Shown here piece by piece: positions 2,641 through 64,000 of a DNA stretch of 64,000 nucleotides. The position numbers and the translations under genes are program-made. Positions within the stretch are counted from its first letter, which is position 1; the number at the start of each line of letters is the position of its first letter. The notes under the pieces are model-generated. The model did not search any database. It was given only the letters and a program-made list of their open reading frames with translations, and had not been told where the DNA came from. Source of the DNA: Anthoceros angustus (lineage: Eukaryota; Plantae; Anthocerotophyta); assembly GCA_010909165.1 (NCBI GenBank), contig MU008182.1, positions 186,001 to 250,000 of the forward strand. Direction: 5' to 3'.

Positions 2641-3285
2641 CCCGAGCTCTGGCCGGCTACGACGGACTCTCCTTGGGGTTAGAAATAAGCGGGGTTTGTT
2701 TTTTCGTGGGTATGGAGTGTAAAATAAAGGCGGAAAGGAGGAATAAGCACGACGGTACTGCAGTACTCGGCCTCGGGGTAGGTAACGGACACAGGAGCCC
2801 ACTCGAAGGACCTCAGGACCACTTGCCGAGTGGATAAGTCCGGACCCCACTCCGGATCAAAGCAGGATAAATCGCCAAGTAACTTAGAAGTTGGGCGTGA
2901 GTTAGGCAGGCGGCGCCACGTGGATGGTCTTGAGTGGTGACGGGCATCGGCAGACGACCGTAGCATTGGCCCGATGGCGTTATAGTCACGCTCCAGTGCC
3001 GCGGCGGTAAGGCTAGAGTAAGCGGCGTAAGGCGAGAGTAAGCCATGCGGGCTCCCGGCGATTCTGGACGGGCGAAGCCCGCCCCTTGGCGGTTACTTCG
3101 ACGAGAGAAGCGGGCGGTCATTCTTCCAAACAACCGGCGATTTACGCATTCTCTGTTCGAGACACGCTCTGGCATTGTCTTTTGATCGCCGCCGCTTCCA
3201 GCGGTTCGACTTGGCGAGGAAGCAAGCGCTTGGGGAGCGAGATTGTGGAGCCTCCGTCTCAGCGGTGAGCGGAAGGAGTGTGAAG

Positions 3286-9767: not shown

Positions 9768-10063
9768 GAGGAGGATTTCATAAAGTAAAGTATCACGTCT
9801 TGCACTTCCATACTCGCGAGTCCTTTGCTCCTTGTAAAGGAATTTTGTGCCGGCTGCAAGCCAACATAGTGTCTGGTAGAGAGGAAGTTTGCGGTGGTCG
9901 GAGTGCTTGGTAGAGGGCTTGCTCCCTGTGAGCACCTCGACGAGTTGCTCCCCTTGTGAATGGTTGCTGTGAAATTGCTTTGCTTTGGGTGTGTGGCGAT
10001 ACCCAAGGATCTCTCGGCTTGAGGGTAGACTATAGGGAAAGACTCCCTGGAGGTTCTGTCGAC
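9768..10063 (+). mobile_element. 3' half (R/U5-like) of a short LTR family
   Basis: Diverged reverse-complement match to 39206-39480; duplicated at ~13893-14128. Confidence 0.65.
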
Positions 10064-35309: not shown

Positions 35310-35687
35310 GTGGAAATCACAGGATGCGTCATTAAAAACGTGCCCCTAGACACGGGTTCGGGGGTCAACCTTATCACGGAGGCCACGGCTCGACGCTTGG
35401 GGTTCACTGCGTTTGAACCCTCAACCAAAACCCTAAGGATGGCGGACATGTCAAGGCGCGCGCCTGTGGGAGAGCTGTCCGGAGTTCAAGCCAACATAGC
35501 AGGTGCACCATACACACTAGATTTCGTGGTCATCAAGCCCGCAGGACCCTTGGGATATGAGGTGCTGTTGGGATGCCCCTGGCTCGGACTCGCCCAAACG
35601 AAGCTGCACTTCGGCAGGAAGGAAATCCACTTTAAACCAGTGGACTGGGATCCGAAGGTAAGGGAAGGACGGGTGGCGATCACCTAG
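35310..35687 (+). CDS. Retroviral-type aspartic protease of Gypsy A
   Basis: VPLDTGSGVNLIT and YEVLLGCPWL. Confidence 0.9.
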   Translation: MEITGCVIKNVPLDTGSGVNLITEATARRLGFTAFEPSTKTLRMADMSRRAPVGELSGVQANIAGAPYTLDFVVIKPAGPLGYEVLLGCPWLGLAQTKLHFGRKEIHFKPVDWDPKVREGRVAIT

Positions 35688-36059
35688 AGCAAGGACACAT
35701 ACTGTGGGGAAACCGTAAGCACCACTGAAGGGTACACCTCCGCCGAGGATAGTGGGGACGATGAACGGGAGGATACGGACGAAGCCTATCCTTTCCCCAA
35801 AATTTTGTGGTCTGAGGAGGAGATGGACTATCGGAGGGATGCCTTTGAGCGGAGGTTGTCGACTGCTTTCGGATGGACGCCGCGATGAGTCAGGAGGACG
35901 GTAAAAGAGAGGAGGGTTCCACGGATGACGAAGCGGCGGAACCTGAAGAAGTGACCTGCTTCACCTCGGACGAACTTTTCCGGGAGTGGGGAATGCACGA
36001 AGATGACCCTCGGGTGGAGGACGAGGGGTTTGAACGTAGTGAGGCTACGCAGGAGAGGG

Positions 36060-36268
36060 AGACAGTCAACCCGGACGATGTGGAAGATGTGGAGGTACGA
36101 CCAGGCAAGTCCTTAAAGTTCAGGAAGGGGATGCCAACAGAGTTGAGGCAGGAGCTTACACAGCTGTTGGGGGAATTCAGTGAAGTATTTGCTTTCAAGG
36201 TCACGGACATGAAGGGTATCCCGAAACAGCGGGGAGAACACCGGATAGACCTGAAGCCGGGTGCGGTG
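36060..36268 (+). pseudogene. N-terminus of reverse transcriptase of Gypsy A (Athila/Tat-like), truncated
   Basis: ELTQLLGEFSEVFAFKVTDMKGIP...EHRIDLKPGAV. Confidence 0.8.
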
Positions 36269-37316
36269 TGTCGCACGAGGTAAGCACTTCCTCGACCAAC
36301 AACCAAGCAAACAAATCTAATACGCAGATATATAGGAGCAACAAAACCTCTCCTGAGACACAATTGCAACGTTAGGCCTGGCGGCGCTTCCCAGCTGTGG
36401 CCAATTTTCCCCAAAAGTCCTCCTTCCAGGGCAAGGCGCCGTCAGCGAGGTGGTCGCGGTGCTCCTCCTGGCGTCCTTCCTTCCACAATCGCGAGGTCAC
36501 AGGCGCCCCAACTCGGTGCCTCCTGTCCTTGACCTCCGCTTCCAGCACTCGCGACACTCAACGCGCTCCTCACCACCTCACAGTGTCCAAGAAGCTCCTC
36601 GGTGCTCTAGAGCGCTTGGTGCCTGCCTCCTCTTCTTCTCCCTCGCGCTTCAGCCAGGGCTCCCTCTCCGCTGTACCGCCTTCCTCTTGTTCGCAAGTAG
36701 CGGCAATATAAATGGTAGCCTCCTTTCCTTCTTCTTCTTCTTCTTACGCCCGCCTTCAAATTGGTGGCAGGTGAAGCGGGCGCCGCTGAATCGCACTTTG
36801 CCCTCCTTGGATGGCTGCCACCTGGAGGTCTCTCAACCCTAGATTGGATTAACTGTCCTAAAATACCCATTTCTGCCTAAGTTGCCTATTTCTCTGTCCT
36901 ATTTGCAGCCCCTAATTAATTACCTTCTAATTAATCCAATCTATTTATTCACCTATTGGTGGGCATATATAGTGGATATCCCTTTATTCTAATTTTCCTC
37001 CCTGTTAGCGAGACTTCATTCGTCACCTACCGCGTAGTTCCGCTCTTCTCCTCGACCTACGGCATGGTGTGGCACCTCACGCCAGGGGTCCACCCTCCGC
37101 CTCTAGGCTGCCTTTCTATCTCGCCCAAGGGTCATTTCGACCCGTTTCTTCTCCCTGGGATATCCTCTCTGCCTTCCTAACATTATCCTACAACTCCAGC
37201 TTCAAAGAATTCAGAAAATTCCCGGCATGCTCCCTTCCAATTGATTTTAGCCAAAAAAATCAAGTTCTCTTCCTCCGGCTCTTTTGGGCTGGTTGCCCAA
37301 ACTTTTGCATTCCACA
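36269..37316 (-). mobile_element. ~1.05-kb LTR (TG...CA)
   Basis: Begins TGTCGCACGAGG and ends TTGCATTCCACA. ~36950-37316 is homologous to ~43285-43612. No matching TSD. Confidence 0.7.
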
Positions 37317-38029
37317 CATGTTGGGAGAAGCATCCGAATCGCCTACGGTTATCGAAAAGCAACCCCGCCAATGCATCCGCCAACCTCATCCACAAAATCA
37401 AGAGCAAAGGCGCCTGTGAGGAGGCACTGAAGTCCCGTGGACAAAAGAAACGGAAGCATCAAAGAAGACGATACTATGGCACGCCTTGCAAAGCCGGAGA
37501 AGTTGGTGCGAAGGCGAAGATCAAGATCAGCAGCTCATCATCGAGGACTAAGAAGATGAGCACAAGCTTGATACATGGCGATCGTGACCAGATCCAAGGG
37601 CAGGAAGAAACCTCCGCAGCCTACGAGAAGATAGCTCGAGGAAGAAGAGGATGTCTGACACCGCAGGCGGAAGACAAAGGAAGCTTCGGATCCTTCCCAA
37701 CCTATGCCAAGATGCCAAAGTCGCTTGAGCCATTGCCGGAGCAACTGGGAGCAACATCAAAGTCCAGTGGGCGATGTGGAGAAACCCATGCACAGATTGT
37801 TGACGAGACGATGGCACAAAAGCTGAGATGCCATGTTTTGTTTACAAGACATGGGGTTGAGCGTGAAGGAAGTCGTGGGTTTGACTCTGGATGTTGACAA
37901 CCCTTGAAGACGAAGCAAGTGTCCAAGATTTGCCACAGTAGCAATGATGTCATTGCCGACCTCCCAACCAAGCATCTCCGTGGAAAAGCAAACACGAGTG
38001 GCTTTGGTCAACAATCGGGAGAGGCACAT

Positions 38030-38300
38030 TGAAATCAATGGATTCGCACAAGGAGGGTGTTGATTGACACCGGAGCACGTCGTTGGAAGAAGAGTGAAGG
38101 AAGCTGGGTCTCCACCAAGAAAGGTTGAAGGAAACCAAGTGGAAGATCCGCATCACCGGGACCACGGAGCATGTGTTGGGGTGACAAGGCATGTCAAGGT
38201 TTCATTCAAACCAAGAAGCAGACTTCACCTTTGTCGAGGTACACCGCTGGTCACCGATGCGTATATTTGATGTCTTGGAGCGGACGCTTTGTACAAACCG
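38030..38300 (+). pseudogene. Aspartic protease of Gypsy B, frameshifted
   Basis: RRVLIDTGA (DTG at 38066-38074) and a downstream FDVL.GADALYK-like segment near 38266-38297. Confidence 0.75.
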
Positions 38301-38673
38301 AGTCATGGTGGATTTGTGGACGAGATGCTATCGATCAGCCGAGAAGCCGGAGCAAAACCGATGAACGGATTGCCCGATCCCTCTACACGCATGGCAAGGA
38401 TCATGAGAACCTCATTGCCAGCCTACCTAGTGTCAGAGGTGAAGGACACGCCATACGTGCTTGAACCTCTTTGGCGTGTGTCTAACAACCGCACCGACGA
38501 TGGAGGATTCACGAGGAGGAGGAAGACAAGCTAGTTGCTGCCCACCCCGGAGGAGGTTCTTCAAGTCACCGACAGAGCTAGTGATCGCAGAATGAGCCGT
38601 AAAGCAAAGTGGAGGATGGTGCAATAGGACTAGTGTCCTATGACCCGAGAATCACTGAAAGTTCTTGCCTAGG

Positions 38674-41600
38674 TGTGAAGGAAAACCCGGGCTTCCGAGG
38701 CTTCCTCTAGCTGCCACACTTATCCCACCGCCGCCTGGACGCTGGGTTTCGTCCCATGAGGCTTGTGTGAAAGCTCTAGGTCTTGTGGAAACAATCACAC
38801 CGCAGCGGACACAACTTCTCACCTTCTAAACAAGCAAGGCGCCTCTACTCCCTCTTACAATAGCCGCACCACTTGCACCGCCCGAAAATCACCAATCGAC
38901 CTACAACGACACAACACAAGTGTCCCGCCTCAGCAGCCACGGCGCCAGTGGACCCCCGATCCACACCGCATTTCGTCCCTACTTAAGACCAACTCTTCTC
39001 CACTGTGAGCGCTTTTACTTGCATTTGGGATCTGGCCCCTTAGGCTCGCGTGGCCTTCCACTAACACCTACACCTCTAATCCTCTACTCATCTCCTCATC
39101 CTCTTCCTCCTATTCTAACCTCCTGGGCTTTCGCTCGCCTTACGGCACAACCGCCTGGGTCCGCCTCCAGCAAGTTCTTCCTTGGGCGGTTGCTGAGTTT
39201 GACACTGTGACGAGAACCTGTGGAGTCTTTCCTAGTCTACCCTCAAGCCGAGAGTTCCCGGGCATTGCCACACACCCAAAGCAAAGCAATTTCACAAAGA
39301 ACCATTCACAAGGGGAGCAACTCGTTTAGGCACTTGGAGCAAGTCCTCCACCAAGCACTCCGACCACCGCGACTTCCTCTCTACTGAGACGTGTTGGCTC
39401 ACTGCAGAAATTCCTCATGGCAAAGGACTCGATGGAGCGTCGCAAGACATGATACTTTACTTTGTGAAATCCTCCTCCTCTTATAGGAGGCCTTCCACAT
39501 ACAACCTCCCTTGGGTGACCCTCACAGTCACCTTTTCCAATATTCTTATTTCCTACCGCCAAGATTTAAGGCTGGCATCTAAGTCTCCCGATCCTAGGTA
39601 AATTCTATTCTAGCAACTTCACCTATGGCCACTCTTTAATGTTGCCAACCTACACCACCTATCCTTCCCATTCCCCAAAGCTCATTTATGGTCATTGACA
39701 ATTCTCCCTTATCTTGCAGTGGCAGGTTCCCTTGGTTGGTCTTCTCATCCCCTTTTCTCTCCCTTTGCGCTGGTCTTCCCTTTTTGCACTGGTCTTCCCA
39801 CCGACCTCCTCTGACTTTTGGGGTACCTTCCGACCTTTGGGGCACCTTCCCGCCCCTTCTTCCCTCTGGGCGGCGCCGATTCCTCTTGCCATCCAGCAAT
39901 CGCGCCGCACTCGAATGGCCCATCTTCTAGCCTCCACGACGGCGCTCCTTCAAAGGGCACCCTACCGCGGTAGTCCGCAGACTCGGGGTGACTACCTACC
40001 ATGGTAGTCTGGTCCCTATCTCCTTCCCTCTTCCTCCGGTGATGGTCCACAGGGTTGAGATCCTTTTTGCTCCTTTCCTATTGTTTGATTTGTCCATACC
40101 TATCATGGAGCATGTCTTCAAAGGTTCCTCCCCCCATTTGCTGACCGATGTTGTCACCTCGCTAATTCCTCCGGGCCTTCTTTGCGTTGGTCTCCTCTCT
40201 TGGCCCTGGCTCCTCCCTTATCCGTGGGGTGAGGGAATTTCTTACCCCTCCCCCTTCCTCGACGGGTCGGACCCCGTCCTTGTCTCCACCGGTCATTGCT
40301 CCCACCACCTTATCATCTATCGGGGCATGGACCCCGCCCTTCATCCTCAATCAGCCTCGGCTGGCTCCCCTCAGTCCCACGCAGGTACCGCCCACCGCGT
40401 AGTCCGCGACTACCGGCGAGGGTGGTACCTACCACGGTGAGTCCGACTACTGGTAGGGTGGTCACTCACCGTGGTAGGGTGACCCCACCTTGCCCCTGCG
40501 CCATCTCCTTCCTTTGGCGCCGAGGACTCATCCTCCTCTCCTTCACTTGTGGAACAAGTGACCTCCTTGCTCCTCTGCACTTATGTTGGTAGGTTGAGCT
40601 CCTCTTTGTGATTTTTCATTCTCCTAGGGAGACAACCTCCTCCTTAACATCTCGTGGGGCCAAAGTACTTGCCTCCCCTACCATCGCCTCCCTCAACTTG
40701 CATCCATTGCCTCCTTCGAGACCCACGCGGTAGGCCGCCTCCCCCCCGTGAGGCTGCCTCCCCACCGTAGGTTGCCTTCTTCCTCCCCTGTTCCTTATGG
40801 CACTATGGGCTCCTCTCGCCATTTCTTCTCCAAACTCCTCGGAGTCCATATCGCTTGTGACCTCATCAAAATCTAAGGCCCCGGCTTAATGCATGAGGGC
40901 CTCCCTATCATCATCGTGTGGCCCAAGCATCCTCCTCTTCACAATTATTGTAGGCCTCCACACACCATGCCATCGCCCAATATTTTTGGCAATGGGTTTA
41001 CTCCAAACTACCACCATGCGCTTCATGAGTTGGGGTTTCTTGGCCTTGAAACCCTTCACGGCATCCACACAGCTTCCTCGAACCAGCCTCATCATCGCTT
41101 GGCTCTTAGCAATCCCATGAGGAGAACAAACACCAAGCTAAGCACCAAGAACACTAAGGACGTCCCCTCTTAGAAGAAATTCACTCAAAACCAAGCCAAG
41201 GCACACCAAGACCCAAGAAATTGGTGCCACAAGAAAAGAGAACACCAAGAGGAGATGGCGGCATCACTCTTAAGAAGGCACACACGTGCAGAGGGCGCAC
41301 ACAAGCTCTAGCTCACTCCCCTCTGCACTTTTAGACATCCCAGGTCTTCTCATCGACAATTATAGCAACAGCTCCTAAATTGCAGCCATAGATTTGAGTG
41401 GTTGCAAGCATGTGGCCATATCCCATCCATTATTTCGCACCAGCCATAACCTCTAATTTCTATCGTAGCCATCAATCCCCACCATGAATCTAAGGATCCT
41501 TTCCATCCATCTTGCACAAATTCAAGACCCTAGTTGGTTTGCACCAAGAAGGCTCTTAAGTCATCAATCCTTCAGCTCTTGTGCAAGAGCAACATTCCCT

Positions 41601-43612
41601 GCATCTCCTTGGCCCTAGGCGCTCCCATAGAGACCATCCTACCCATCAAAACCCAAGGAAAAGCTCAATCCTCAGCCTCCAAAATCCGGCCGCTGCTGCA
41701 ACTCCCTACTAAGAACTTTCCCAATCAGCTCCCTGTGTCTTTTGCAAATATAAGCTCATACTCCTCACAAAAGGCACCCCATCCGAGTAATGATCCGCCC
41801 ATAGGACGCTTAACTGAGTTCTTATACCCACATATCCAACACACCAAGTTCCTCATGCATTTTGCCATACATTTTGTCATTATTGAACTCCTCACCAAGC
41901 TCCTTCTCCACATTTCTCCTTAGCGAACTCCTTGACCAACTCTCGAATCCTACCTTGCCCAATTCTCCTCGCGCCACCACAACGACCTCCCTTCACACCT
42001 ACTTGCAGCCCAAGCTGAATTTTGCCTTCATGATGCACACCCATTGCGATTCCTTCACCATATTGCAGCCCATCGCAATACCTTCTGTCAGTGCCACCTC
42101 CATCTTGCAGCCCAGCAAATTCAGCTTGCCATGAGAGCTCTACCATGGCCTCTCCTAGTTCGACACGGCCCTATCATGCCATCCTCACATCATTACTCCA
42201 CGCAAGTACTTCCACATGCTTCACGCCATGGCCTCCTCTTGCAAATGACTAGCATTGTGCACCATAACTCAGCTCTCTTCTCTCTTCATCCTTCGCCTTG
42301 TGGCCTTCACCCCGCAACATGTGCTAGGCACTCCAATTCCCTTCCGTAGGGCTGCCTACCTACCAACGAGGCTGCCTACCTACGGTCTTTGGGTACCTGG
42401 CTATAGTGGGTACCCCACCACCCTTGTACGTGTTGTTCCTATCACGGTAGGGTGTGCACCTACCATGGTAGGCGTCTCCTATACACCATTTGGCCCTATC
42501 CTCCGCATCTCTTGAGCTCCTCTGGGGCTCGCTCATGGAGGTTTCCTCCTCCTCGAACCCCTCGGGTTCTACCACGCTTCCTCTTCCTTCGAGTCCTCCA
42601 GCCTTGATGCCGCAGCTTGACGATGCTGCCTCCGAGTGTCATAAAAGGCAATGGTCTTTCCACACCAGGCCTTGACCTCGCCTTGCTCACAATTCCCTAG
42701 CTCTTATACCCTTGCTTTTGACGAGTTTCCAATTGCTGTGATTTCGAAGAAGGAATTCTCTAAGGTTCAGGATTCTTACATCTTCTCCAAGTTGAGAGTC
42801 CCTTCTCCGCAATTTCTCTTCAATTTTGACATGCCTTGCTCTTCCCAACACCTTTGGGCTTGGGCAAGCATTGCCTTCTTCCTTCCACCCGGCCCTTTCC
42901 TTCCTTCTTCTTCTCTTGTTGCACCCCTACTTGTCTTGCCTATTTTCCTCTCTCGCCTAGCTTGCGCCTCTTCTCTATCCTGCACAGCGCACGACATCGT
43001 AATCTGTGTGGGGCTCTTCTACAGACTCTTGGTGTGGCGGCGCCTTCCTGCGTGTTGGCGCTTCCTCACCTTCAAGTTGTGACCTCCTACACACATGCAG
43101 ATTATAAAGATAACTTGGGGTTAGGAATGGTAACTACCAATCTACTCGCCTTGGATATGCACCACGTGGCACCTTTTCTGTTGATTGGAGTTTCCCAATT
43201 CCTCTTATACTAAGATACTATTTTCCCCTAGTTTCCTAACGGCCCAATCTAGCTTTTAATTTCCTATTGACCCATTTATCTAGTCCACTATTGGTGGGCA
43301 TATATAGTGGATATACCTATCCTAATCCTTTTTAGCCGAGATTTCTACCCACCGGTAGTCTCCAGCTACCGGTAGTCTCCCTCCAATCTGAGTGGCCAGT
43401 GTAGGTCACACCACCGCCTCTCGGCCGCCTCCTTGCCCGCCCACTCGCCATTTGACCCGCTTTTCCCTCGATATCCTCTGCTTCCTAACATCCTACAACT
43501 CCGCTTCAAGATTCAGAAAATTCCGGCATGATCCTTCCAATCGATTTTAGCCAAAAAATCAAGTTCGTTCTTCCTCCGGCTCTTTTAATGGTTGCAGACT
43601 TTGCATTCCACA
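38674..43612 (-). mobile_element. 4,939-bp composite, pol-less LTR-element insertion
   Basis: TG...CA ends with exact 5-bp TSD CTAGG. Contains an LTR at 39206-39654 (purine tract GGGGAATGGGAAGGATAGGTGG adjacent, TATA-like CCTATAAGAGG), a degenerate gag-like region and an LTR at ~42750-43612. Confidence 0.75.
39950..42560 (-). pseudogene. Degenerate gag-like region
   Basis: Minus-strand coding-like E/K-rich fragments between two LTRs; no pol motifs seen. Confidence 0.4.
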
Positions 43613-43664
43613 CTAGGGTTGAGCCTGCTAGACCTAAACACCTGTGTCATCACATGGCGACCGG

Positions 43665-44554
43665 AAGGGTATAGTGCTCGTGGAACTTTTGGAGGCATCG
43701 ACCGCTTGAAGCAAAGTGTGGCATCAAAGTGCTAAGATACGCGTATTGTGACCCGATCCAAAAGCAAGGATTGTCACAAGCGCTGTGAAGAGACTTGATG
43801 GGGAGTACCTAACCTCGACGGGAGTGAAGGTTTTATAAAGGCGATGGATGTTCGCATGATAGGGTTGTCCCATTTGAGTTGTCTTGGGCAACCGGTGGAC
43901 CTTGTCATCGCAGTTGGGAGTGTCAAGGACTATCCTCTGGCAAGGGTCAAGGTCTCAAGGATCCACAACAAACATTGTTCTATGACCGATGAGGATCTTG
44001 CGCTTGATCCGTAAAGGGCAAGAAAGGCCTTGTGGATACATGTTGGAGAATGTGCCAGATGCATGAGCGTGAAGAAGCAAGTTCAGGAGGATTTTGCCAC
44101 GATCCGAGGAGTGTTGGTCGAGCTTCTATTGGATGCATTCAATTTGGTTCGAGGGCTCATAGGTTGAGGTCCATGTGGACTAACCTTGCTCCCTTGGAAC
44201 ATTTGAAGTGTGCGAGGTCGCTCACCAAGCGACCTAATCATGTTGTCAAGGATGTGCTAGCATCGGAAGGCATGCCCAACAAGTCATCAAGACCGACAAG
44301 CCGCCGACTTCCGTGAACACGCCTGACACCCCATGGCGGCTTGGCCAACCTTTGTGTCCAAGTCCAAGTCTTACGCCTTCAGAACCATGGCCCGGCGTTG
44401 TGGGATGACATGGCGAGGTTTTGGAGAGCCAACACCACGAGAGGGAGTTGGCCATGGATTTGATGCCGAGCCACAAGACACCGGAGTGACCGAGAAGGAA
44501 CGGTGTCGATTGCTTGGGCAAGCATTTGACATGAACATGATGACCGTTGTTTAG
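43665..44554 (+). pseudogene. C5 cytosine DNA methyltransferase domain (DNMT3-like motif order) embedded in Gypsy pol, frameshifted
   Basis: Motif I IVLVEL(F)GGI at 43671-43699; CGIKVLRYAYCD; DVRMIG...PVDLVIA(G)WECQGLS (Cys codon 43921-43923); GLKDP...LFYD; motif VI GYMLENV (ENV 44046-44054); motif VIII FGSRAHRLRSMWTNL; motifs IX-X EP...E.ELAM(G)F...GVTEKERCRLLGQAFDMN. Confidence 0.9.
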
Positions 44555-44739
44555 CTACGAGTCGCTTACCAACTTCAAACCAAGAAGGCGGGGTTGAAGC
44601 CGGGTTGGTGGGTGAAGGATATTCCAAGACTATCTCAACAGGAGAAGGCGAGTTTGGAGGGCAAGGAGAGCGAGCACGAGAGGAAGCGCAAGCCATCCGA
44701 GCCACAGCCACATGAGTGGTTAACAGGCCGAGTTGAAGA

Positions 44740-45620
44740 GCAATCAACGCGCCTAAAGGAGTTGTTGGAGGCATCGCGACATGTGTTTGCTTTCACGCTA
44801 TGGAGATGGGGAAGTACACCAAAGGGAAGTTCCACATAGAATCGACTACGGATGAACCAAAGGTTCAGAGGCAGGTGCTCGAAGGCCGAGTGGGATTTGG
44901 TTGAGAATCGATGCCAAGAGCTTCTCAAGCTAGGGCTGATTCGACGATCTAACTCTGACGCATGCGAGGTTTCCAAAAAGAAGGATGAGAATGGATTGTG
45001 GACGGAGAGGAGAATGTGTGGTGACTATCGGCCGTTGAACGAGCGAATCCCACATGACCACTATCCCATGCCATGGCCAAGAGATCTTCGACACCATTGG
45101 GTCTCGCCAAGTTCTTCTCAACATTGGACTTGAGGCTAGGGTTTCACCAAGTAGAGATCGCCAAGAAGACAAGAAGAAAACGCGGGCGTAGATTGCTTGT
45201 ACGAGTGGAACTTACATGCCATTTGGGTTGAAGACATCGCCAACGCAGCTCCAAAGGTACATGGACAATGAGCTCAAGGACTTGCATTTCGCCAAGTGCT
45301 ACATTGATGATGTCATCATCTTCAGCAATACCTTTGAGGAGCATCTACAACATCTTCGAGCGCCTTTGCTAGACTGGTCAGGGGTTGAAGGCCCATCCAG
45401 GAAGTGTCGATTGGAGAGGACAAGGTGTTGTACTTGGGTCATTGGATCACGCGACGGATCTCGCCGCATGCCACCAAGGTGGAGGCAATCGCGCATTCCT
45501 GTGCCAAACGACATCTCGTTGAGGGCATTCTTGGGTTGGCGGTGTTACTGTGAAGTTCATTCCATGGATGAGCAGGATTGCGCCATTGAATGACTTGTTG
45601 AAGAAGTTGGTGACTTGGCG
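44740..45620 (+). pseudogene. Ty3/Gypsy reverse transcriptase
   Basis: ELLKLGLIRRS, KKDENGLWTERRMCGDYRPLN, LDLRLGFHQV, MPFGLK...QRYMD, YIDD (45300-45311), LRAFLG. Confidence 0.95.
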
Positions 45621-45950
45621 TTGGACTCAAGAGGAGGAGTCGGCTTTCATGGAGTTGAAGGGTAGACTCATGAGCTCGCCAATTCTTGGTCATCCAAACT
45701 TCAAGAAGCCATCGACTTTAATCGATTGGAGCAAGTGCGGCAGGGGGTCTTGGCGCGATCAATGACAAGGAAGAGGAACATGTCATTGCCTATGCCACCG
45801 GAGCAACAACCAAGCGGAGTCCAACTACTCGCCTATGAAGGAGAATGTCTTGCAGCAGGGCAATGGACACTTTCGTCCGCATTGTTTGGACATCAATTTT
45901 GACTATCACCACCATCAACCCTGTAATCGTTGATGACGCAAGCTTACGAA
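45620..45950 (+). pseudogene. RT connection and RNase H
   Basis: WTQEEESAFMELKGRLMSSPILGHPNFKKP...DWSKCG, EEHVIAYA, ESNYS.YEGECLA. Confidence 0.85.
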
Positions 45951-45969
45951 GCATGCCGAGACGCAGATC

Positions 45970-46740
45970 GAAACAAGCATGTCATGCTAATGGTGGAGCA
46001 TTTCAAGTGGTAAGGTTGCCATCTTACCCAAGCGTGACTCTCTTACCGAAGGCGTTCTTGGCTTCCGTTCTAGTCGATATGGAGCATGTGCGAGGTTCTC
46101 ACCGACGGCAAAGAATTCGTGGGAATTTCAAGACTTGCTTGACAGAGCTTGATTGATCATCGACCGAGAGATCATCCTCGAGATGGACTTGAACGCTTGG
46201 TGCACGGCCTTGTAAGTATTGTCTCACAAATGACCAAGACATGGGATGAAGGGATGCCATACCTAGTGCTAGGTACAGGGTGAGCAATCAAGACCTTGAG
46301 CAATTTTTCACCATACTACTTGTTGTATGGGCGACAACCATTTTGCCAAACGTGAGGCAAGCAAGGCTACAAGCACCGTGGATTGGCGCAATCCGGATGA
46401 TTGCCTACGAGACCGGAAAGGCGCGAGCTTTTAAACGGATCATGCCCATGGCAATGGAGAACCTTGCCATAGCGCAACAGGGATCAAGCGCTATGCTTAC
46501 ACACGAGGAGGGACATGGAAACCCAAGGTGCGCAAGTTCAAGTTGGAGATTATGTCTACGACGGCCGTGCAACACCTTGGAGGTATCCACCACAGAGTCA
46601 TCTTTGGTCGTAGTAGGCAAAGATGGAGTGCTTGAGCTCAAGGATCCGATGGTCAAGATGGAAGGATCACCTCAAGAACTGCGCACATGCCACTTACCCA
46701 ATTTGGACCCTCAACTACGGCCTAATGTGGGGCCCACCCA
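45970..46740 (+). pseudogene. DDE integrase core and C-terminus, partly deleted
   Basis: HVMLMVEHF(S)KW, SRYGAC.EVLTD.GKEF, LIDHR..RDHP..DGL.ERLV, MPMAMENLAIAQ. Confidence 0.8.
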
Positions 46741-46745
46741 AAGAC

Positions 46746-46889
46746 TTGGAGTGTCGTTTGTGGACGATCGATGATGATGATGTAATGCTTCTTTGTGATC
46801 GGTGCAATAGGGGATACCACATGTTTTGTGTTCAACCACCTCTTGACGACATTCAGGAAGATTGGTTTTGTGCACAATGCACTACATGA
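46746..46889 (+). CDS. PHD finger at the C-terminus of the Gypsy B polyprotein
   Basis: LECRL(C)...DDDVMLLCDRCNRGYHMFCVQPPLDDIQEDWFCAQC, a C4HC3 pattern, then stop. Confidence 0.92.
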   Translation: MECRLWTIDDDDVMLLCDRCNRGYHMFCVQPPLDDIQEDWFCAQCTT

Positions 46890-47210
46890 GGTGCGACGTA
46901 TGTAGTCCTACTAATGATAATGTTGACTTGGAGTCTCACATTATCGGGGATTGGTTTGCACCTATATACTGCGTATTAGATTTGTTTGCTTGGTTGTTGG
47001 TCGAGAAGTGCTTATATGAATTCATGCTTATGCTGCCGTGGTGATACTAATCTACGCACTTGGGTTTAGTGTTTGATTAGCATTAATTAATCTAATTACT
47101 TATCTTTAAGTAAGTAATTAATCTAAGTGCTTATGTTAATTGCATTGATTAGTGTTAATTAATCTAATGTGTTAATTAAGCATTGATTAGTGTTAATTAA
47201 ACATGGTTAG

Positions 47211-47358
47211 CAATAGCTAAGTGGATAAGCTCAAGTAATATGCTTTGGCATATTCCTTGCATATTATAGTGTATTCTTAGGATACAATAGCTAAGTGGAT
47301 AAGCTCAAGTAATATGCTTTGGCATATTCCTTGCATATTATAGTGTATTCTTAGGATA
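47211..47358. repeat. Exact tandem duplication, 2 x 74 bp, in an AT-rich LTR-like tract (~47043-47660)
   Basis: CAATAGCTAAGTGGATAAGC...TTCTTAGGATA at 47211 and 47285. Confidence 0.9.
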
Positions 47359-47659
47359 TTTCTGGCATATGCTGATGCCAATAGGATATCTTAGGAATAT
47401 GCCGATGCCAGGGTCTAGCATATATAGACCCTTCCATTGAGGACAAGCTCAGATCATAGCTTGTCCTCTAGATATGCAATGCAAGGGTGTTGTGAGGAGG
47501 CCAAAGCTATGACTCCGAGAGCGATGTGTGAGGAATTTGCGTGTTGTTCTCGTGGGGAGAGTATGTTTGTGCCACGATGTGCGAGCTACTCCCTCCTGTT
47601 GTTTTGAACAACCAAACTAATACGTTCACATTAGTTTTCAGGTGTCTTTAGTTAGGGTG

Positions 47660-48030
47660 CCCATGATGACTCACACCAAGCGTGTTGAGGCCGTAGGAAT
47701 CATGGGAAAGCAAGGGACCAACTGCCAAGTGAATCAGAGCGTGGAGATTGAGATGGACGCTGGACAAAAAGGAGAGAGGACGCCCATTGTAGGCGTTGAA
47801 GCCGTGCGGCCTCGAGAGGAAGGAGGAAGCATTGCAATTCGGGAATTTTGGTGTGTGGAATGTGTTGATGTTTTCCTTGGGATCGAACTTGGGAGGCGAT
47901 CCGCAACGCAGGGCGCTGATTTGCAATCACCAGCCTCACAATCGTGAGGCCCGCTACATCCAAAATGATGCCGCTCAACAAAGAAAGCGATTTTTCAACA
48001 AGAGACCTCTGCTTTTGATGCGGGACTAGC
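47660..48030 (-). pseudogene. Possible gag N-terminal fragment
   Basis: PPKFDPKENINTF resembles a retrotransposon gag P.kF.g motif; weak. Confidence 0.3.
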
Positions 48031-48880
48031 ACAATTGGTAGTCCATGGTGAGAAGGAGAACCTCAACGCTGCTAATGTGGTGACAGGGTAGCTATACTCG
48101 AGGCCCCAGCGGATACAGTGATCCCCAAGCGGATACACGGGATCCCCAAGCCGGACATGATACCGGATAGCCCCAAGCGCGATATACCGACAAGTTCATA
48201 AATGATACTCCCAGCACATGATGGGGCCAAGATAGGATCTGTTGATACATGTGGACTTCCCAAGATCACCATACTGATAGTCCCAAGCGCAGCCACAATG
48301 GGATGCCCCGATTGCCAGGACACCTTGACCTCGCACGATAATTGGTAAGAAAAGAAAAAAAATGAAAAAAATGAAAAAAGAAACCTAACTAATATGAACA
48401 AAACTATGAGCATCTGCCTCTTTTCTAACTGTGGACCCAAAATTCGGTGTTCCACAAGCGAGCAAGAGATTACACCTATTAGACTAGCGCATCCAAACAA
48501 GTCTCTTGGGATCGAACCCACGTATTCGTCGACCGTGGAATAAGTGTGGCCACTGGCGCTAGCTCTAGGTGACCGGGATGAACCCACCACTTGTGCTCAC
48601 ATGATCTCATTGATTTCCGGCTGTGGCTGAGCGAGGACAACATACAGCTTCAGTAGGTCTGTGACCGCCATTGGGCCTATAACAACCTCGAGCTGGTAGA
48701 GGAATGTTATGCAAGTCTTCACATGATCCCAAGACAATGGGCAGCCTTACCCGAGAAGAACATGAGGACAGACCCTCACTGTTGAACGGTTTGCACCTAT
48801 ACTTGCATTTTAGATTTTTTTTGCTTGATTGTTTATTGAGAAAGTGCTCATCTGAATGCAAGTGCTTACCTCTTGCAACA

Positions 48881-50560: not shown

Positions 50561-53233
50561 TGTGGACAAAGGACGGATGCTTTGACTCCCCTTAGGATCG
50601 ATTAGCAGGGGGGTTTTTCATTTTTTTTGAGGATTTGTGTGGAAAATAAGGGGATACGCGTGGATAATAAGGCTGATCCAGCCAAGCCGCGTAAGCGTGC
50701 GAACATATGGGTAAGGTCCAGAATGAGAAGAACCACGCCACACGTGGGTGGTGGGCAGGTGGGCGTGGCAGCAGAACCCTGCAATGTCGGCCGTTATTGG
50801 TAGATAGTCACGACTCAAGGACATGGGCCAAGAAGGCGCCGAGCGTGAGGCTACGGTACAAGATGCAGAGAGGTGGCAGTTACTGGCAGCGAAGGACATC
50901 TTCCCACGCGTCGATTATGCCCGCCACGCTGAGAGAAGAACACCTCCAGACACGGCATCTTGGCAGTTTTCTCAGTCTCTCATGCTTCGACACCCAGCCC
51001 TCTGGCGCTCTTTCTTTCACAATGCAAGCACAGTGTTCTAGAGAACTCGCATTGACTCGGCGCGCTTTTCCCCTCGGAATCTAAGGACGCGGCGAGTTAC
51101 ATCGACGCCGAGACTATTCGAGTAGCAAGGCGAGCAACGAGGAGGCATGGCTCCCAAGAAGGCGGCGGAGGTTTTGGAGCCCTAGATGCTGGTAGAGAAA
51201 AACATCATCACCAAGCGCTACCCTGATTTCTGCCCCTGGCTAGAGGAGGCGGGCGAGCTCGTCTAGGAGTGGCACCTAGACATATTCCAGGCGCTCTGGA
51301 CATATGATAGTGTGGCCCTAGTCCGGGAGTATGCACGGAAGTTGCTGGCAGCAGCAAATAAGTCCGTTCGATCGAAGAGCCTGAGGGAGGGCCCTAGACG
51401 CTGGACAGTGGAGGCCCTTCGGGCGGTGTACAACTAGCCTCCGGAGGAGGTCAAAGGGGTGGTGCCGAAGCCCCTGAAGGGGAAGGGGAAGTTGGAAGTG
51501 GCGAGGGCTGTACTTTTGAAGCAAGACGCTCAGAGGTCCTCCAACGGGTGGTTGATGTCAGACCTGAAAGACCGATGAGTGAGAGCAATGGCCAAGATCG
51601 TAGTCCACTGGAACACGCTCACCAAAGTGGACCACATGGGGGACAACCTCTTGGTGTTCCTGCATGCCCTCATGAGGGGCAAGCGGGCGGACTGGGGGCG
51701 AATCATCTTCGCCCGGATAGCACAGGAGGCGCATAAGCTGCGCAACGAGCGACCGCCTCCATCGGCACTGTCCCCTTTCATCTTGCATGTCTGGGGACAC
51801 CATAACCTCCTAAAGGAGAGGGAGGAGGAGGATGCACTCCACCGGGGGCTAGCCACCCTGCTAATTGCAAGCAGAGATGAGGAGGAGCAGCTCCCAAACA
51901 GCAGGCCAGCCGCAGAGCCCAAGACCGGGCGCACACAGGAGGAGGAGGATTGGGGGGGCATCCCGGATGCCATCCGCTTGGAGAGAACCCCTTCTCCCCC
52001 AAGGGAAATATGGGAAGAGATCCCCGCGTCCCTCTTGCTGGTGACGGCACCGAAGGAGCAAGCCCCGACAATTGCTACGACTGGGCTGGAGGTGGTGCCG
52101 GTGGCTCCGGCGGTGACGAGACCAGCCCTAGACCCCCCAGTGGAACCATGCCAGACTAGGACGGAGGGCCGGAAGAAGAAGAAGACAGTGCCCGGGCCTA
52201 CCGTCCCGATGCTGGGCCATGCTGATGAGCGCGGAGTGGGCGGAGGCGGAAGAGGCAGTTCAGCGAGCGGAGTAAGACGCCGCCCAAGGGGCAGCAGGGC
52301 ACTGGCAGCACCCGCACTTGGAACCGGTGCTCTCCCCCACTAGGAAGGGGAAACGAGCCAGCTCCCGAACTCCGTCGCCCCCACCGGACCCAAAACGCCG
52401 AAGGGCGGAGAAGGAGTTAGCCGCGAAACGGGCCAAGGAGGTGGAGGGTTTGGTACCGGATGGGCAAGACCTAGAACTCCTAATCAAGGCCAGAGTGCCC
52501 GATCCGGACCAGCTCCAACGAACGGCAGTCTGGCAGTCCTTGGTTGGACAGGGGATGCCTGCACCCTCGGCAGGATTTGAAGGAGCTTCGCCGGCCGCCG
52601 CGGTGGAGGAGGCTAGGCACTCGAGTCCTGGCATCCGTCGCGGATGGTATGATCTGGGGGCTCTATCGGGCCTCTGAGCGAACACAAGAGGTAGAAGCCA
52701 CTAGACGACATGGTGGAGCTTCAAGGCCAGAAGGAGGGTGTTGTTGTGCGCGAAGTGAGAGCCAAGATTGAGGAGGAGGAGAAGTGTCGAACGGCTAAGA
52801 GGAAAGCGAGATCCGCCCTACAAGACCGTGCCAAGGTTCTTCAGCTATGTGAACAGCTGAAGTAGGCGCAAGGGGCCCAAGCACGCGCAGAGGCCCTAAG
52901 CCAAGAATTGGAAGGCGGCCAAGAACGAGAAGGTACGGCAACGTGAAGGCTGTGGCAGGCGGCGGAGGAAGCTCTGGCAGAGTCCGCCTACAGAAGAGCG
53001 ACAAGTGTGTACACATTTTTGTGGTAGGAGATCGCCGTAGTCCTCGGCATAAGCAATCGGATCGACTTGGTCAAGAGTTTAGGATCGCAGCTGGAGGAGA
53101 TGAGACCGCTCTAAACCCACCATGCGCGATAGTAGAACAAGAATGCATGTTCCCATTTCTAGCATCATCTAGCCGCATCAGCTCGCCTGTTCTCTATTGC
53201 GGTACGGCCCGCTAGGCCAAGCTGAAAGAGGTA
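50561..53233 (+). mobile_element. ORF-bearing LTR-like module, truncated by CACTA III
   Basis: Starts TGTGGACAAAGG, with the same leader layout and ORF as the 962 element. Confidence 0.65.
51147..53000 (+). pseudogene. Accessory ORF (Transposase_32-like), best-preserved copy
   Basis: MAPKKAAEVLEP...EWHLDIF...YDSVALVREYA...VFLHALMRGKRADWGRIIFARI...SALSPFILHVWG resembles the LVREFY and (D/N)WG.II...P.LIT signatures of plant retroelement extra ORFs. Contains stops and frameshifts. Confidence 0.6.
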
Positions 53234-59115: not shown

Positions 59116-62100
59116 ATGGAGAGAAGTGAGCCATCTTTGGTTCCAGAATGGCTCAAGGGAGCCGGTGGCGGAAGTGGGGTTCCCCACCACGCCCAACCTC
59201 TCAGCCATCAAGGTATATTTCTAAGTCCTCCAGGTTGTTCTTGGTGCTGAGTACTTTTTCTAAAGGATGGCTGCTTGCACGTCGAGTAAGCACGGTTGCT
59301 GATCCAATTGAGCTCTTCCGCTGTTGTTAAAGTTTGTCATTTTTGTGGGTTTCGGTCCCTGCTACCACTGGAGCTTGATCTACCGTGTAGGCACTTCAGT
59401 CTATGCGAAGTTGATGGTTCCCTTTCAGAACCCCTGTTAGGTCCCGAGACGTTTTCCTCCTCATTTTTGGCGTTATCCTTGTCAGTGTTAAGGGAAACAC
59501 CTTACAGCTTCAAGATATCGAGGGTGCTGCGATGCATCTATTTTTAGGGCTTGCACTGCAATGTAAACGGTCCCTGTCCGGTTTCTATGCTGTGCACAGA
59601 GCTTGAAACATTTTCTCGTCTTGGTTTTACATTTGGTTATGCACGGGGTGTCAGCATGTGCAGTATATGGGGAGGCTGAGGTTTAGATCCTTGCTTGTAA
59701 TTTGAGTGTGCGAGGAATCGGTGGTAGAAGGTTGCCACTTTGGAAGCTAACCGTTTTGCAGTTTTGGATGTTAGTGATATTTGTGGCATATGCTCATATT
59801 CACTTGGCTTGGCAGACGAGAGTGGGAGCGTGTTTTTGTCTAGACAACGGTCACAACCTCATGGTTCAACGGTAGCTGGACATGGAGATTATGACTCTCC
59901 ACGGTACTTGGGCTCCTCTGAGCGCCTTTTATGCTACAGTTAGGAGAGGAAGTAGTGCTGGAAGTGCAAATGAAGCTATGAAAGGGATTCATTTTCCCAT
60001 TCCAGGCCGTACTCTAGCTTTGGTAGGAGTCCATCCTATCGTGTATGATGGATTAGATCGTGATCGTGAAGGACAGAGGGATCGTGACTGGGATTGGGAG
60101 CGAGATAGAGACCGAGAGTTTCGTGATAGAGAAAGGGAGAGAGCATTGGCGTTTGGTGCTGGAGATGATAGGGATATAGGCGTGAGCGCTCAGACACAAC
60201 TTTCAAGGCCAACTACTTCAGGAACTGCAGGCAGGTATGAGTCAGATTTGGCTCACGGCGATCTCAGTCTCTCGGTTCAAACAGGGGTCAGAGAACGGGA
60301 GAAGAAAGCTGTAGGTGAGTTAGGTGGACTCCCAACACGCCCAACCTCTCAGCCATCAAGGTATATTTCTAAGTCCTCCAGGTTGTTCTTGGTGCTGAGT
60401 ACTTTTTCTAAAGGATGGCTGCTTGCACGTCGAGTAAGCACGGTTGCTGATCCAATTGAGCTCTTCCGCTGTTGTTAAAGTTTGTCATTTTTGTGGGTTT
60501 CGGTCCCTGCTACCACTGGAGCTTGATCTACCGTGTAGGCACTTCAGTCTATGCGAAGTTGATGGTTCCTTCAGAACCCCTGTTAGGTCCTGAGACGTTT
60601 TCCTCCTCATTTTGGCGTTATCCTTGTCAGTGTTAAGGGAAACACCTTACAGCTTCAAGATATCGAGGGTGCTGCGATGCATCTATTTTTAGGGCTTGCA
60701 CTGCAATGTAAACGGTCCCTGTCCGGTTTCTATGCTGTGCACAGAGCTTGAAACATTTTCTCGTCTTGGTTTTACATTTGGTTATGCACGGGGTGTCAGC
60801 ATGTGCAGTATATGGGGAGGCTGAGGTTTAGATCCTTGCTTGTAATTTGAGTGTGCGAGGAATCGGTGGTAGAAGGTTGCCACTTTGGAAGCTAACCGTT
60901 TTGCAGTTTTGGATGTTAGTGATATTTGTGGCATATGCTCATATTCACTTGGCTTGGCAGACGAGAGTGGGAGCGTGTTTTTGTCTAGACAACGGTCACA
61001 ACCTCATGGTTCAACGGTAGCTGGACATGGAGATTATGACTCTCCACGGTACTTGGGCTCCTCTGAGCGCCTTTTTTATGCTACAGTTAGGAGAGGAAGT
61101 AGTGCTGGAAGTGCAAATGAACGCCCAAGCTATGAAAGGGATTCATTTTCCCATTCCAGGCCGTACTCTAGCTTTGGTAGGAGTCCATCCTATCGTGTGT
61201 ATGATGGATTAGATCGTGATCGTGAAGGACAGAGGGATCGTGACTGGGATTGGGAGCGAGATAGAGACCGAGAGTTTCGTGATAGAGAAAGGGAGAGAGC
61301 ATTGGCGTTTGGTGCTGGAGATGATAGGGATATAGAGCGTGAGCGTTCAGACACAACTTTTCGAAGGCCAACTACTTCAGGAACTGCAGGCAGGTATGAG
61401 TCAGATTTGGCTCTACGGCGATCTCAGTCTCTCGGTTCAAACAGGGGGTCAGAGAACGGGGAGAAGAAAGCTGTAGGTGAGTTAGGTGGACTCCCAACAG
61501 CAGCCCCAACAGTCAGTAGTGTTAGTCTGACTAGCAGTATGCAAAAGGCTGCGTTTGAACGAAATTTTCCTTCTCTTGGGGCTCAGGAAAGGCAGAGCGC
61601 TATTCAATCTGGCACTGGGAATGTAGCAGTGCTGAGTCCTCGACCTTCATGGCAGGGATCCACTTCACGGCCAGATGGAAGAACTGGTGCTTCTCCTGGG
61701 ATGCCATCCACTCAGGGTGCGATCTCTGGAAGTTCTTCAGCTGGTGGTGCTGTGAGCATTGGGGCAGAAGGGTGGAATTCGGCTCTTGCTGAAGCACCCC
61801 TGTTGTGAGCAGCACTGTCCCAGTAAATAATGGGTGTCTCCAGGAGGCCACTGTAACAACTATAAGTCCAACCCCACACTCTGGAGGCACTTTATCAACC
61901 TCTTTGAGTGCTCCAAAGATGGCTGAAACTTTGGCTCAGAATCCTTCTCGAATCAGGACTCCTCCCAGGTGAGGCTGCTGTTCCTGGGTGTTTGCCAGCC
62001 TTACATGAACTTTCCTGACTTCTTACACAAAATGGTGCCACTTTAACTTTCGTCATTGTTAACCTTGTTCCCAGTTTGTGGTGGAGACCCAGACTCAGAG

Positions 62101-64000
62101 GCTTGAGGAGCTGCAGTTCAAGCAGTCACGCCAGCTTGTTCCTATCAAGCCATCTTTTCCAAAAACAATGGTATAAGGTTGCCACTTTGGAAGCTAACTG
62201 TTTTGCAGTTTTGGATGTTAGTGATATTTGTGGCATATGCTCATATTCACTTGGCTTGGCAGACGAGAGTGGGAGCGTGTTTTGTCTAGACAACGGTCAC
62301 AACCTCATGGTTCAACGGTAGCTGGACATGGAGATTATGACTCTCCACGGTACTTGGGGCTCCTCTGAGCGCCTTTTATGCTACAGTTAGGAGAGGAAGT
62401 AGTGCTGGAAGTGCAAATGAACGCCCAAGCTATGAAAGGGATTCATTTTCCCATTCCAGGCCGTACTCTAGCTTTGGTAGGAGTCCATCCTATCGTGTGT
62501 ATGATGGATTAGATCGTGATCGTGAAGGACAGAGGGATCGTGACTGGGATTGGGAGCGAGATAGAGACCGAGAGTTTCGTGATAGAGAAAGGGAGAGAGC
62601 ATTGGCGTTTGGTGCTGGAGATGATAGGGATATAGAGCGTGAGCGCTCAGACACAACTTTCAAGGCCAACTACTTCAGGAACTGCAGGCAGGTATGAGTC
62701 AGATTTGGCTCTACGGCGATCTCAGTCTCTCGGTTCAAACAGGGGTCAGAGAACGGGAGAAGAAAGCTGTAGGTGAGTTAGGTGGACTCCCAACAGCAGC
62801 CCCAACAGTCAGTAGTGTTAGTCTGACTAGCAGTATGCAAAAGGCTGCGTTTGAACGAAATTTTCCTTCTCTTGGGGCTCAGGAAAGGCAGAGCGCTATT
62901 CAATCTGGCACTGGGAATGTAGCAGTGCTGAGTCCTCGACCTTCATGGCAGGGATCCACTTCACGGCCAGATGGAAGAACTGGTGCTTCTCCTGGGATGC
63001 CATCCACTCAGGGTGCGATCTCTGGAAGTTCTTCAGCTGGTGGTGTTGTGAGCATTGGGGCAGAAGGGTGGAATTCGGCTCTTGCTGAAGCACCCCCTGT
63101 TGTGAGCAGCACTGTCCCAGTAAATAATGGGGTGTCTCCAGGAGTGGCCACTGTAACAACTATAAGTCCAACCCCACACTCTGGAGGCACTTTATCAACC
63201 TCTTTGAGTGCTCCAAAGATGGCTGAAACTTTGGCTCAGAATCCTTCTCGAATCAGGACTCCTCCCCAGGTGAGGCTGCTGTTCCTGGGTGTTATTTGCC
63301 AGCCTTACATGAACTTTCCTGACTTCTTACACAAAAATGGTGCCACTTTAACTTTCGTCATTGTTAACCTTGTTCCCAGTTTGTGGTGGAGACCCAGACT
63401 CAGAGGCTTGAGGAGCTGCAGTTCAAGCAGTCACGCCAGCTTGTTCCTATCAAGCCATCTTTTCCAAAAACAATGGTATATACACTGTGACCACTGTCAG
63501 AATGTATGTTCGAGCTCTATGAGCAGTCTCTTTGTTTGCGATTAGTCATGCAAATTGTTCTGCAGGGAGTAAGCCCAAGGGATAAATCAAAGACTAAGGT
63601 GGTGAGAGCTGTGGACGTCGTTGCACCGATTCCAACAAAATTGTCCCAGCCTTCAGGCTCTTCACAGCTTCTAAGTGCACCTTACCGGCTACCAGCTGCC
63701 ATGGCAAGAACCGAGACATTGAAGACAGCCCCTCCTGGGAAGCTTCTCGTAAACAAGGCAAGGAAAGAAGCAAATCCTGGTACTGTACTAACAGCAACTT
63801 CTATGAAGGCTGATAACATCCCAGCCAGTGCTGGAACGGTGGGTACAGTGGTGGCAGGCTTGGTATCCTCAGGTTCTCTAGCAGCAAATACAATGGCGGC
63901 TCCTCCTCGGAAGCAAAAACAGTTGCTGGACCGTAGAGCCGTGCCAATTACCCCGATTTCTGTGTCTTCAGGCTTGGAGGGAGGCAATGGACTACGGATT
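59116..64000 (+). CDS. Conserved uncharacterised land-plant protein (recalled as the Arabidopsis AT1G36990/AT4G08510-like family), spliced; runs off the window
   Basis: Exon 1 59116-59212 MERSEPSLVPEWLKG with GT donor at 59213. Exon 2 copies start at 59816, 60961 and 62263 (RD/RE repeats, FERNFPSLG), ending 61968 and 63269. Exon 63380-63475 FVVETQTQRLEELQFKQSRQLVPIKPSFPKTM. Next exon starts 63566. GT-AG boundaries. Confidence 0.85.

Follow-up and report, generated by a model that had tools for sequence, protein, structure and literature searches.

The locus considered here raises the question of whether a DNMT3-like cytosine methyltransferase, lying between the protease (PR) and the reverse transcriptase (RT) of a Ty3/Gypsy retrotransposon, belongs to that element and, if so, what it might do for it. 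The element occupies 37317..46889, with 3' repeats extending to 47596, of a 64,000-nt window (the whole stretch of DNA that was analysed, to which all coordinates refer). Along it were found, in order, the protease, a 4.9-kb insert, the methyltransferase (DNMT), RT, RNase H, the integrase (INT) core and a PHD finger, with PR, RT, RNase H and integrase present as the domain set and order of Gypsy elements. The reading that is preferred here, and that is considered probable with some reserve, is that this is a disabled copy of a multi-copy Gypsy family carrying both DNMT3 and PHD domains, in whose intact members the DNMT likely methylates the element's own cDNA and the PHD finger likely steers it to chromatin in which histone H3 is unmethylated at lysine 4 (H3K4me0).

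The methyltransferase and the element that carries it

A DNMT profile was built from 27 retrotransposon methyltransferases and aligned in a frameshift-aware manner, with X at the breaks. It matched 43650-44587 end to end at 196.6 bits, compared with a mean of 15.5 +/- 1.7 and a maximum of 19.1 bits for 30 shuffles and 15.1 bits for the reverse complement; among 116 tiles of the window only the two covering the DNMT exceeded 26.2 bits, the best score of the other 114. The motifs (motif I at 43680, DLVI at 43898, WECQGLS at 43915, ENV at 44046, AHRLR at 44155 and ERCRLLGQAFD at 44498) are scattered over all frames of a three-frame translation, and they stand at the places and in the non-permuted order that the initial annotation had given. 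The same procedure scored RT-RNase H at 348 bits and integrase-PHD at 209 bits, so that DNMT, RT, integrase and PHD, the domains which that annotation had named for alignment, were all matched, the methyltransferase included. The weakest domain of the element is the protease, at 43.7 bits compared with a shuffle maximum of 28.7, and at only 21.5 bits against a narrower profile.

Pfam searches of all 64 stop-free fragments of at least 25 amino acids found RVT_1 (E 2e-9), RT_RNaseH_2 (4.7e-7) and PHD (8e-11). PF00145 was found in none of these 64 raw fragments because frameshifts keep the frames short, and it is likewise because of frameshifts that a word search of the raw fragments returned no homologs and a PDB search of them no relevant match. 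An Rfam search gave 0 matches, viral contigs gave 0 pattern matches and 0 confirmed loci, and all 10 loci from a metagenome pattern scan were chance matches. By tblastn, six of six relatives matched the window DNMT (E 5e-16 to 1e-5). In the ESM Atlas, as a lead only, its C-terminal fragment fell among PF00145 clusters (25 of 30 matches, best 0.92, 146-156 shared features).

The catalytic cysteine, the motif VI glutamate and both motif VIII arginines are kept in the window DNMT; the cysteine and glutamate are present in all 62 relatives compared, and the two arginines in 61 and 62 of them. A glutamate replaces the usual proline before the catalytic cysteine in the window and in 35 of the 62. 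Identity to the proteins retrieved reaches 41% at most. There is no intron-sized gap inside the domain, which in this copy is frameshifted and has one TAG (44552-44554) between breaks. Searched against the PDB, the family profile had Ty3 RT as its best match (E 9e-113) and matched DNMT3A (1e-17) collinearly from its start, with no DRM or bacterial enzyme among the best 60 of 254 matches; DRM2 was alignable only from about residue 225, over its C-terminal half. A structure predicted for one Closterium relative (mean pLDDT 81.6) was superposed by Foldseek on the catalytic domains of DNMT3A/B over their whole length (TM 0.78-0.83 by target), and DNMT3A/B were the best matches of the relatives by sequence and by predicted fold. 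Judged from these sequence and model comparisons, the methyltransferase is DNMT3-like and non-permuted. A DRM identity was rejected, as the motifs run linearly from I to X and not with VI-X ahead of I-V; because DRM2 aligns through its C-terminal half only, the domain is no DRM capture, as had been claimed from the motif order and as the top rank of DNMT3A/B in sequence and fold bears out. Identity with a host plant DNMT3 was also rejected, DUF3444 having been found neither in the window fragments nor in the 77 relatives scanned with Pfam; RT instead starts within about 150 nt of the DNMT end.

Of the 38674-43617 proposed for excision, the insert proper takes up 38674-43612, the last five positions being the right CTAGG copy of the target duplication. 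The insert is lacking in one public X1 contig, where 38673 is linked to 43631 through a short window-like stretch. In X3, summed contig depth was 32,500-57,900 in the bins 37505-38506 and 43517-47023 and 0-229 in the insert bins, and in X1 it was 719-1258 in the DNMT bins compared with 159-462 from RT to integrase; DNMT depth was above that of RT in X1 and of the same order in X2 and X3; such depths do not give copy numbers, and X2-X4 come from a single sample. Contigs of two organisms cover PR to PHD, and a multi-copy family carrying its DNMT is present in both. Because of the empty-site contig, the contig cover in two organisms, and in-frame DNMT-RT relatives in Closterium and other assemblies, DNMT and RT belong to the same element and were not brought together by nesting, misassembly or DRM capture. 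The view of PR-DNMT-RT-RH-INT-PHD as one element therefore holds, given the empty site and the intact relatives, and the contig depth, the DNMT-RT relatives and the RT clade described below make the DNMT a family trait and not a one-off insertion. The scanned long frames of the insert gave no Pfam domain, and self-comparison showed no pair of long terminal repeats; the insert is likely a non-autonomous element. Its part 39209-39477 recurs inverted at 9768-10060 and 13890-14125 and has very high depth in X1.

Relatives were assembled as a set of 219 proteins from a HMMER search with P0002 (best 150 listed), a DNMT-region search (40 matches) and cluster look-ups; the set includes cluster duplicates and, as queries contained the DNMT, is enriched in carriers. 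P0002, which was retrieved by an RT fragment, has DNMT motifs IX-X in frame with RT. By profile, 102 of the 219 carry a DNMT: in 47 it stands directly ahead of RT (in 14 of these with the protease preceding it), in 38 it follows RNase H, 15 are proteins that end after PR-DNMT without RT, and 2 are DNMT-INT-PHD fragments. PF00145 was called by Pfam in many relatives, and the same protein holds DNMT and RT in 47 of the 219. The carriers named to species are Closterium gene models, together with one protein labelled as from a bacterial metagenome-assembled genome, which is likely mis-binned. The window RT is at best 51.6% identical to any relative and 42-47% identical to Closterium RT. In an RT tree of 73 sequences, from which 17 cluster duplicates and 10 generic Gypsy rows were dropped, it falls in a 24-tip clade with the Closterium elements (SH-aLRT 98.8); DNMT precedes RT in 16 of the 23 other tips, and the remaining 7 start too near RT to tell. 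Members of one DNMT family thus occupy either of two positions in Pol, ahead of RT in 47 proteins or between RNase H and integrase in 38. The RT and DNMT trees largely keep the two layouts apart, which suggests that the DNMT relocated within Pol.

A tail at the C-terminus, at most about 200 amino acids long, was matched by 19 of the 219 proteins (P0064, P0074, P0119, P0215, P0208, P0141, P0105, P0080, P0217, P0065 and others), after the PHD finger in 18 of the 19. About half of these tails have DPWxGxG or SPxF motifs, which are amino-methyltransferase-like, and a PDB search gave no identification among the best 60 of 179 matches. Several tail-bearing proteins also have a DNMT after RNase H and would be dual-methylase elements with a PHD finger.

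The PHD finger and possible roles of the methyltransferase

The PHD finger had 58 PDB matches, led by KMT2D, ATXR5, UHRF2, KDM5B PHD1 and BAZ2A and also including UHRF1/2, KDM5 PHD1, BAZ2A/B, CHD4, PHF21A and AIRE, with no ING, BPTF or TAF3 entry among the 58. The group of ATXR5, UHRF, KDM5 PHD1, BAZ2, CHD4, PHF21A and AIRE reads unmodified H3; that of ING, BPTF and TAF3 reads H3K4me3. Because its closest solved relatives bind unmodified H3 tails, the finger likely favours chromatin without H3K4 methylation. A PHD finger was found in 49 of the 219 proteins of the wider clade. Chromoviruses have a histone reader at the integrase C-terminus, which is thought to guide insertion. They carry a chromodomain, as in the example of MAGGY (bioRxiv 10.1101/2021.11.30.470311), at the place where the window element has its PHD finger, and chromovirus identity was rejected, as there is no C-terminal chromodomain and the PHD finger is followed by a stop at 46887. 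The idea that Selgy elements carry a PHD finger found no support in the literature searched.

To judge from the relatives, intact copies would have a single reading frame coding for one polyprotein; the DNMT would be packaged with RT and would in this way act in cis. With CG or CH as the target that kinship to DNMT3 would predict, it would methylate the element's own new cDNA, and the PHD finger would likely guide integration to chromatin with unmethylated H3K4, the ligand to which the nearest solved structures point. Each new insertion would then be pre-methylated on its arrival in gene-poor chromatin, where it would resemble host heterochromatin and do the host less harm. A single, ancient capture of the DNMT is likely, by a Gypsy clade of green algae and plants that bore a PHD finger, followed by a move behind RNase H in a sister group. 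As the best explanation, this builds on the domain order, catalytic residues, family membership and empty site established above. Self-methylation of cDNA has been proposed before (PMC5890265), and the de novo CG methylation produced in yeast by SymbioDIRS-Dnmt3 domains (PMC5890265) counts in its favour.

Several observations weigh against this reading. The empty site is seen in a contig of depth 9, the sole contig for that site, and the frequency of carriers among the relatives reflects in part the queries used. The DNMT tree does not mirror the RT tree, the long branch of the window DNMT joining the DNMT-after-RNase H group through an internal branch that is very short. No protein among the 219 has a complete PR-DNMT-RT-INT-PHD and only 3 have DNMT-RT-INT-PHD; several close relatives whose integrase end is complete lack the PHD, and the DNMT-PHD pairing is therefore not obligatory. 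Observed/expected CG is 0.76 in the element and 0.77 in the whole window, so that CG depletion as a mark of self-methylation is not seen beyond background. CWG shows its strongest loss in the window within the element (observed/expected 0.26-0.30) and stands at about 1.0 in the neighbouring spliced gene, but other repeats fall as low as 0.34. As evidence specific to the element it was therefore rejected, and a host CMT or basecalling error explains it equally well. CMT-type CHG methylation occurs from charophytes onward (PMC6453930), and the loss in repeats fits CHG methylation by CMT, to which basecalling error could contribute. Finally, the single KnitGypsy-Dnmt3 domain tried in yeast gave no methylation, a result that its authors regarded as inconclusive (PMC5890265).

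An active DNMT might instead work after integration or in trans, marking the insertion site, its own promoter or other host DNA and so tuning expression, not disguising cDNA. The conserved catalytic residues suit any DNA target, the 15 relatives that end after PR-DNMT indicate that the enzyme can be made apart from RT, and the upstream protease could release it; direct fusion of DNMT to RT in this lineage (P0002 and the 47 of 219) nevertheless favours action where cDNA is made, and we consider this alternative unlikely. Retention of the DNMT as a DNA- or S-adenosylmethionine-binding module or a spacer, with little methylation activity, would accord with the inactivity of the KnitGypsy domain in yeast (PMC5890265), with glutamate in place of proline before the catalytic cysteine and with the background level of CG depletion. 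It is made distinctly doubtful by the near invariance of the cysteine, glutamate and arginines across sequences about 40% identical and by a complete DNMT3 fold predicted at high confidence. That the DNMT is a chance neighbour (a retrocopy of a host DNMT3 or DRM, another element nested in a plain Gypsy, or a misassembly) might be suspected from the noisy nested repeat region with its many indels and from Gypsy relatives with PHD but without DNMT (P0119), yet it is highly improbable in the face of intact DNMT-RT fusions in Closterium and other assemblies, contigs that span PR, DNMT and RT in two organisms, the empty-site contig, linear motifs against a C-terminal-half alignment of DRM2, and the lack of DUF3444 in 77 relatives.

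State of this copy and surrounding sequence

The copy is inactive, because its 5' end is missing, it carries the insert and it has lost about 0.7 kb of integrase. Neither Gag nor the 5' terminus of the element is in the window. The integrase is without its H2C2 finger and first catalytic Asp owing to an internal deletion just before 45972; two of its motifs lie 83 nt apart, compared with 240-312 amino acids in relatives (both motifs being found in 9 of 12). Alignment required 41 frameshift steps and left 67 codons missing, with no stop in 979 matched codons (one stop at an inserted position). Between near-identical duplicates in other parts of the window there are 11-13 gaps and 3-4 substitutions, and two X1 contigs covering RT show, relative to the window, 3 substitutions and 7 gaps in 324 nt and 7 substitutions and 9 gaps in 222 nt. 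The small frameshifts look technical, like long-read errors, and the family appears young because these two contigs differ by few substitutions.

At the 3' end, X3 contigs run from 47591-47597, the end of repeat A, back to 46946-46950 at repeat B, and 23 contigs have variable letters before 47041. Repeat B (60 bp) precedes the 3' A here, and a second B, which follows A in other family copies, is absent. With the 5' side missing, this order and the A-to-B joins in X3 contigs hint that the 3' repeats share a DIRS-like B-A-B layout. The adjoining stretch 47597-48880 is bounded by TGTTG...CAACA and ends in a 79% copy of B; it may be a related terminal repeat at the position of the element's second B.

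Table 1. Features of the element in window coordinates, with strand and supporting evidence.
Feature	Coordinates	Strand	Evidence
5'-most surviving part, upstream of protease	37317..37982	+	contig depth as high as pol in X1-X3 from ~37505; no Pfam match
Aspartic protease, frameshifted, DTG at 38066	37983..38322	+	43.7 bits, family PR profile
Left CTAGG copy, 5-bp target duplication	38669..38673	+	sequence
4.9-kb insert, TG...CA ends, splits PR-DNMT linker	38674..43612	-	depth, empty-site contig, self-comparison, Pfam
Right CTAGG copy of target duplication	43613..43617	+	sequence
DNMT3-like C5 cytosine methyltransferase; motifs I, IV, VI, VIII, IX, X linear; 13 frameshift breaks	43650..44587	+	196.6 bits; tblastn; ESM Atlas lead
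Ty3/Gypsy RT (YIDD at 45300) and RNase H	44735..45921	+	348 bits; Pfam RVT_1, RT_RNaseH_2
Integrase core and C-terminal part	45972..46745	+	profile columns 98-430 only; motif distances in relatives
C-terminal PHD finger (46746-46886), stop 46887-46889	46746..46889	+	Pfam PF00628 E 8e-11; 58 PDB matches
Short repeat B ahead of 3' repeat	46953..47014	+	95% inverted copy 36281-36341; 79% copy 48788-48868
3' long repeat A (inferred)	47031..47596	+	X3 contig joins; highest depth of stretch

Adjoining the element on its 5' side, 36269-37316 is a minus-strand TG...CA piece (1048 bp) of another element, the 5' 400 bp of which are 73-74% like the end of the insert and the 3' end of which is 95% like repeat B. 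No target duplication is seen in its flanks, which come from two different Gypsy elements; this suggests recombination or a chimeric join. Ahead of it, 35310-36268 holds the protease (35310-35650) and the beginning of the RT of a different Gypsy element; no DNMT separates the two, and CWG is depleted little there. Further away, a frameshifted CACTA-type transposase (Transposase_21, E 7e-9) was found at 19020-19841, and the GC-rich stretches 1588-5954 and 51129-52917, about 65% alike and with long open frames but no Pfam match, form a repeat family. A spliced host gene at 59120-64000 has a streptophyte match in the ESM Atlas (0.89, lead only); its near-identical duplicates of 1.15-1.3 kb, which differ mostly by gaps of 1-2 bp, are probably an assembly artefact. 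With the CWG pattern described above, this lead makes a streptophyte host likely; the gene may resemble a land-plant family, and a land plant is considered somewhat more probable than not.

Comparison with known elements

The closest described system is KnitGypsy-Dnmt3 of Klebsormidium nitens (de Mendoza et al. 2018, PMC5890265), in which a non-rearranged Dnmt3 lies in the Pol of a streptophyte Gypsy element and the repeats follow a DIRS-like A-coding-B-A-B layout. In common with it, the window element has a non-rearranged and apparently intronless Dnmt3-related domain with its catalytic residues kept, again in the Pol of a Gypsy element whose host is a likely streptophyte, and contigs of its family show signs of B on both sides of the 3' A. 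Purifying selection on the DNMT (Ka/Ks below 0.2) is a further mark of this type; in the window's family the conservation seen is at the protein level. It differs in its host and in belonging to a lineage for which no close relative was retrieved; the comparison is by description, as no K. nitens-named protein was among the 22 looked up or the 40 listed. PHD has 0 occurrences in the main text of PMC5890265, where the domain order is given only in Fig. 4c. The initial annotation therefore overstated the novelty of the locus, both this type of DNMT in a streptophyte Gypsy Pol and self-methylation of cDNA having already been put forward there.

Closterium (Zygnematophyceae) models such as CAI5973665.1, CAI7855100.1 and CAI7886383.1, annotated as 'unnamed protein product', share the PR-DNMT-RT-RH-INT order and the RT clade of the window element, and no PHD finger was detected in them. 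SymbioDIRS-Dnmt3 and SymbioLINE-Dnmt are also retrotransposons with a C5 methyltransferase, but have DIRS or LINE backbones and dinoflagellate hosts (PMC5890265). EpiLTRs of Cymbomonas and Euglena likewise pair a C5 methyltransferase with a chromatin reader (bioRxiv 10.64898/2026.05.21.726589); their enzyme is DNMT4-related and accompanied by DAM and a chromodomain, whereas the window element has a DNMT3-like enzyme and a PHD finger, at which its coding sequence ends. Host DNMT3 of non-flowering streptophytes and DRM have the DNMT3-type catalytic domain in common with it, but the former has DUF3444 and the latter is permuted, and the window DNMT is neither (PMC6453930). PHD-retrotransposon fusions in general have been reported, none with a DNMT in the portions examined of bioRxiv 10.1101/2021.11.30.470311, and 'Gypsy-DNMT3' of streptophytes is a name used in bioRxiv 10.64898/2026.05.21.726589. 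In the literature searched, of which the sources were covered in part, there was no Gypsy element with both DNMT and PHD and none with a DNMT from a land plant; Fig. 4c and the supplement of PMC5890265 and the supplements of both preprints may already show a PHD finger.

What is possibly new is a divergent lineage, its DNMT at most 41% identical to anything retrieved, with a PHD finger of the type that binds unmodified H3 and, perhaps, a host among the land plants. A wider picture, which we offer tentatively and regard as somewhat improbable in its entirety, is of a land plant with a young, abundant Gypsy family that writes DNA methylation and reads H3K4me0, like the writer-reader pairing of animal DNMT3. 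Within the green lineage this family would belong, as one branch, to a large clade so far undescribed, with the DNMT before RT or after RNase H and, in some members, a second methyltransferase of the amino type. The family bears on the question of why retrotransposons retain a silencing enzyme, the sole Gypsy-borne DNMT tested having shown no activity in yeast (PMC5890265). An abundant, apparently young family that keeps every catalytic residue, with about 100 related proteins, allows intact natural domains to be selected for assay, and through the PHD finger a connection of self-methylation with the choice of target can be tested. Should the host prove to be a land plant, such elements would range beyond algae, and a land-plant family of this kind would, if true, overturn what has been stated in print, namely that land plants have no methylase-encoding transposons (PMC6338049).

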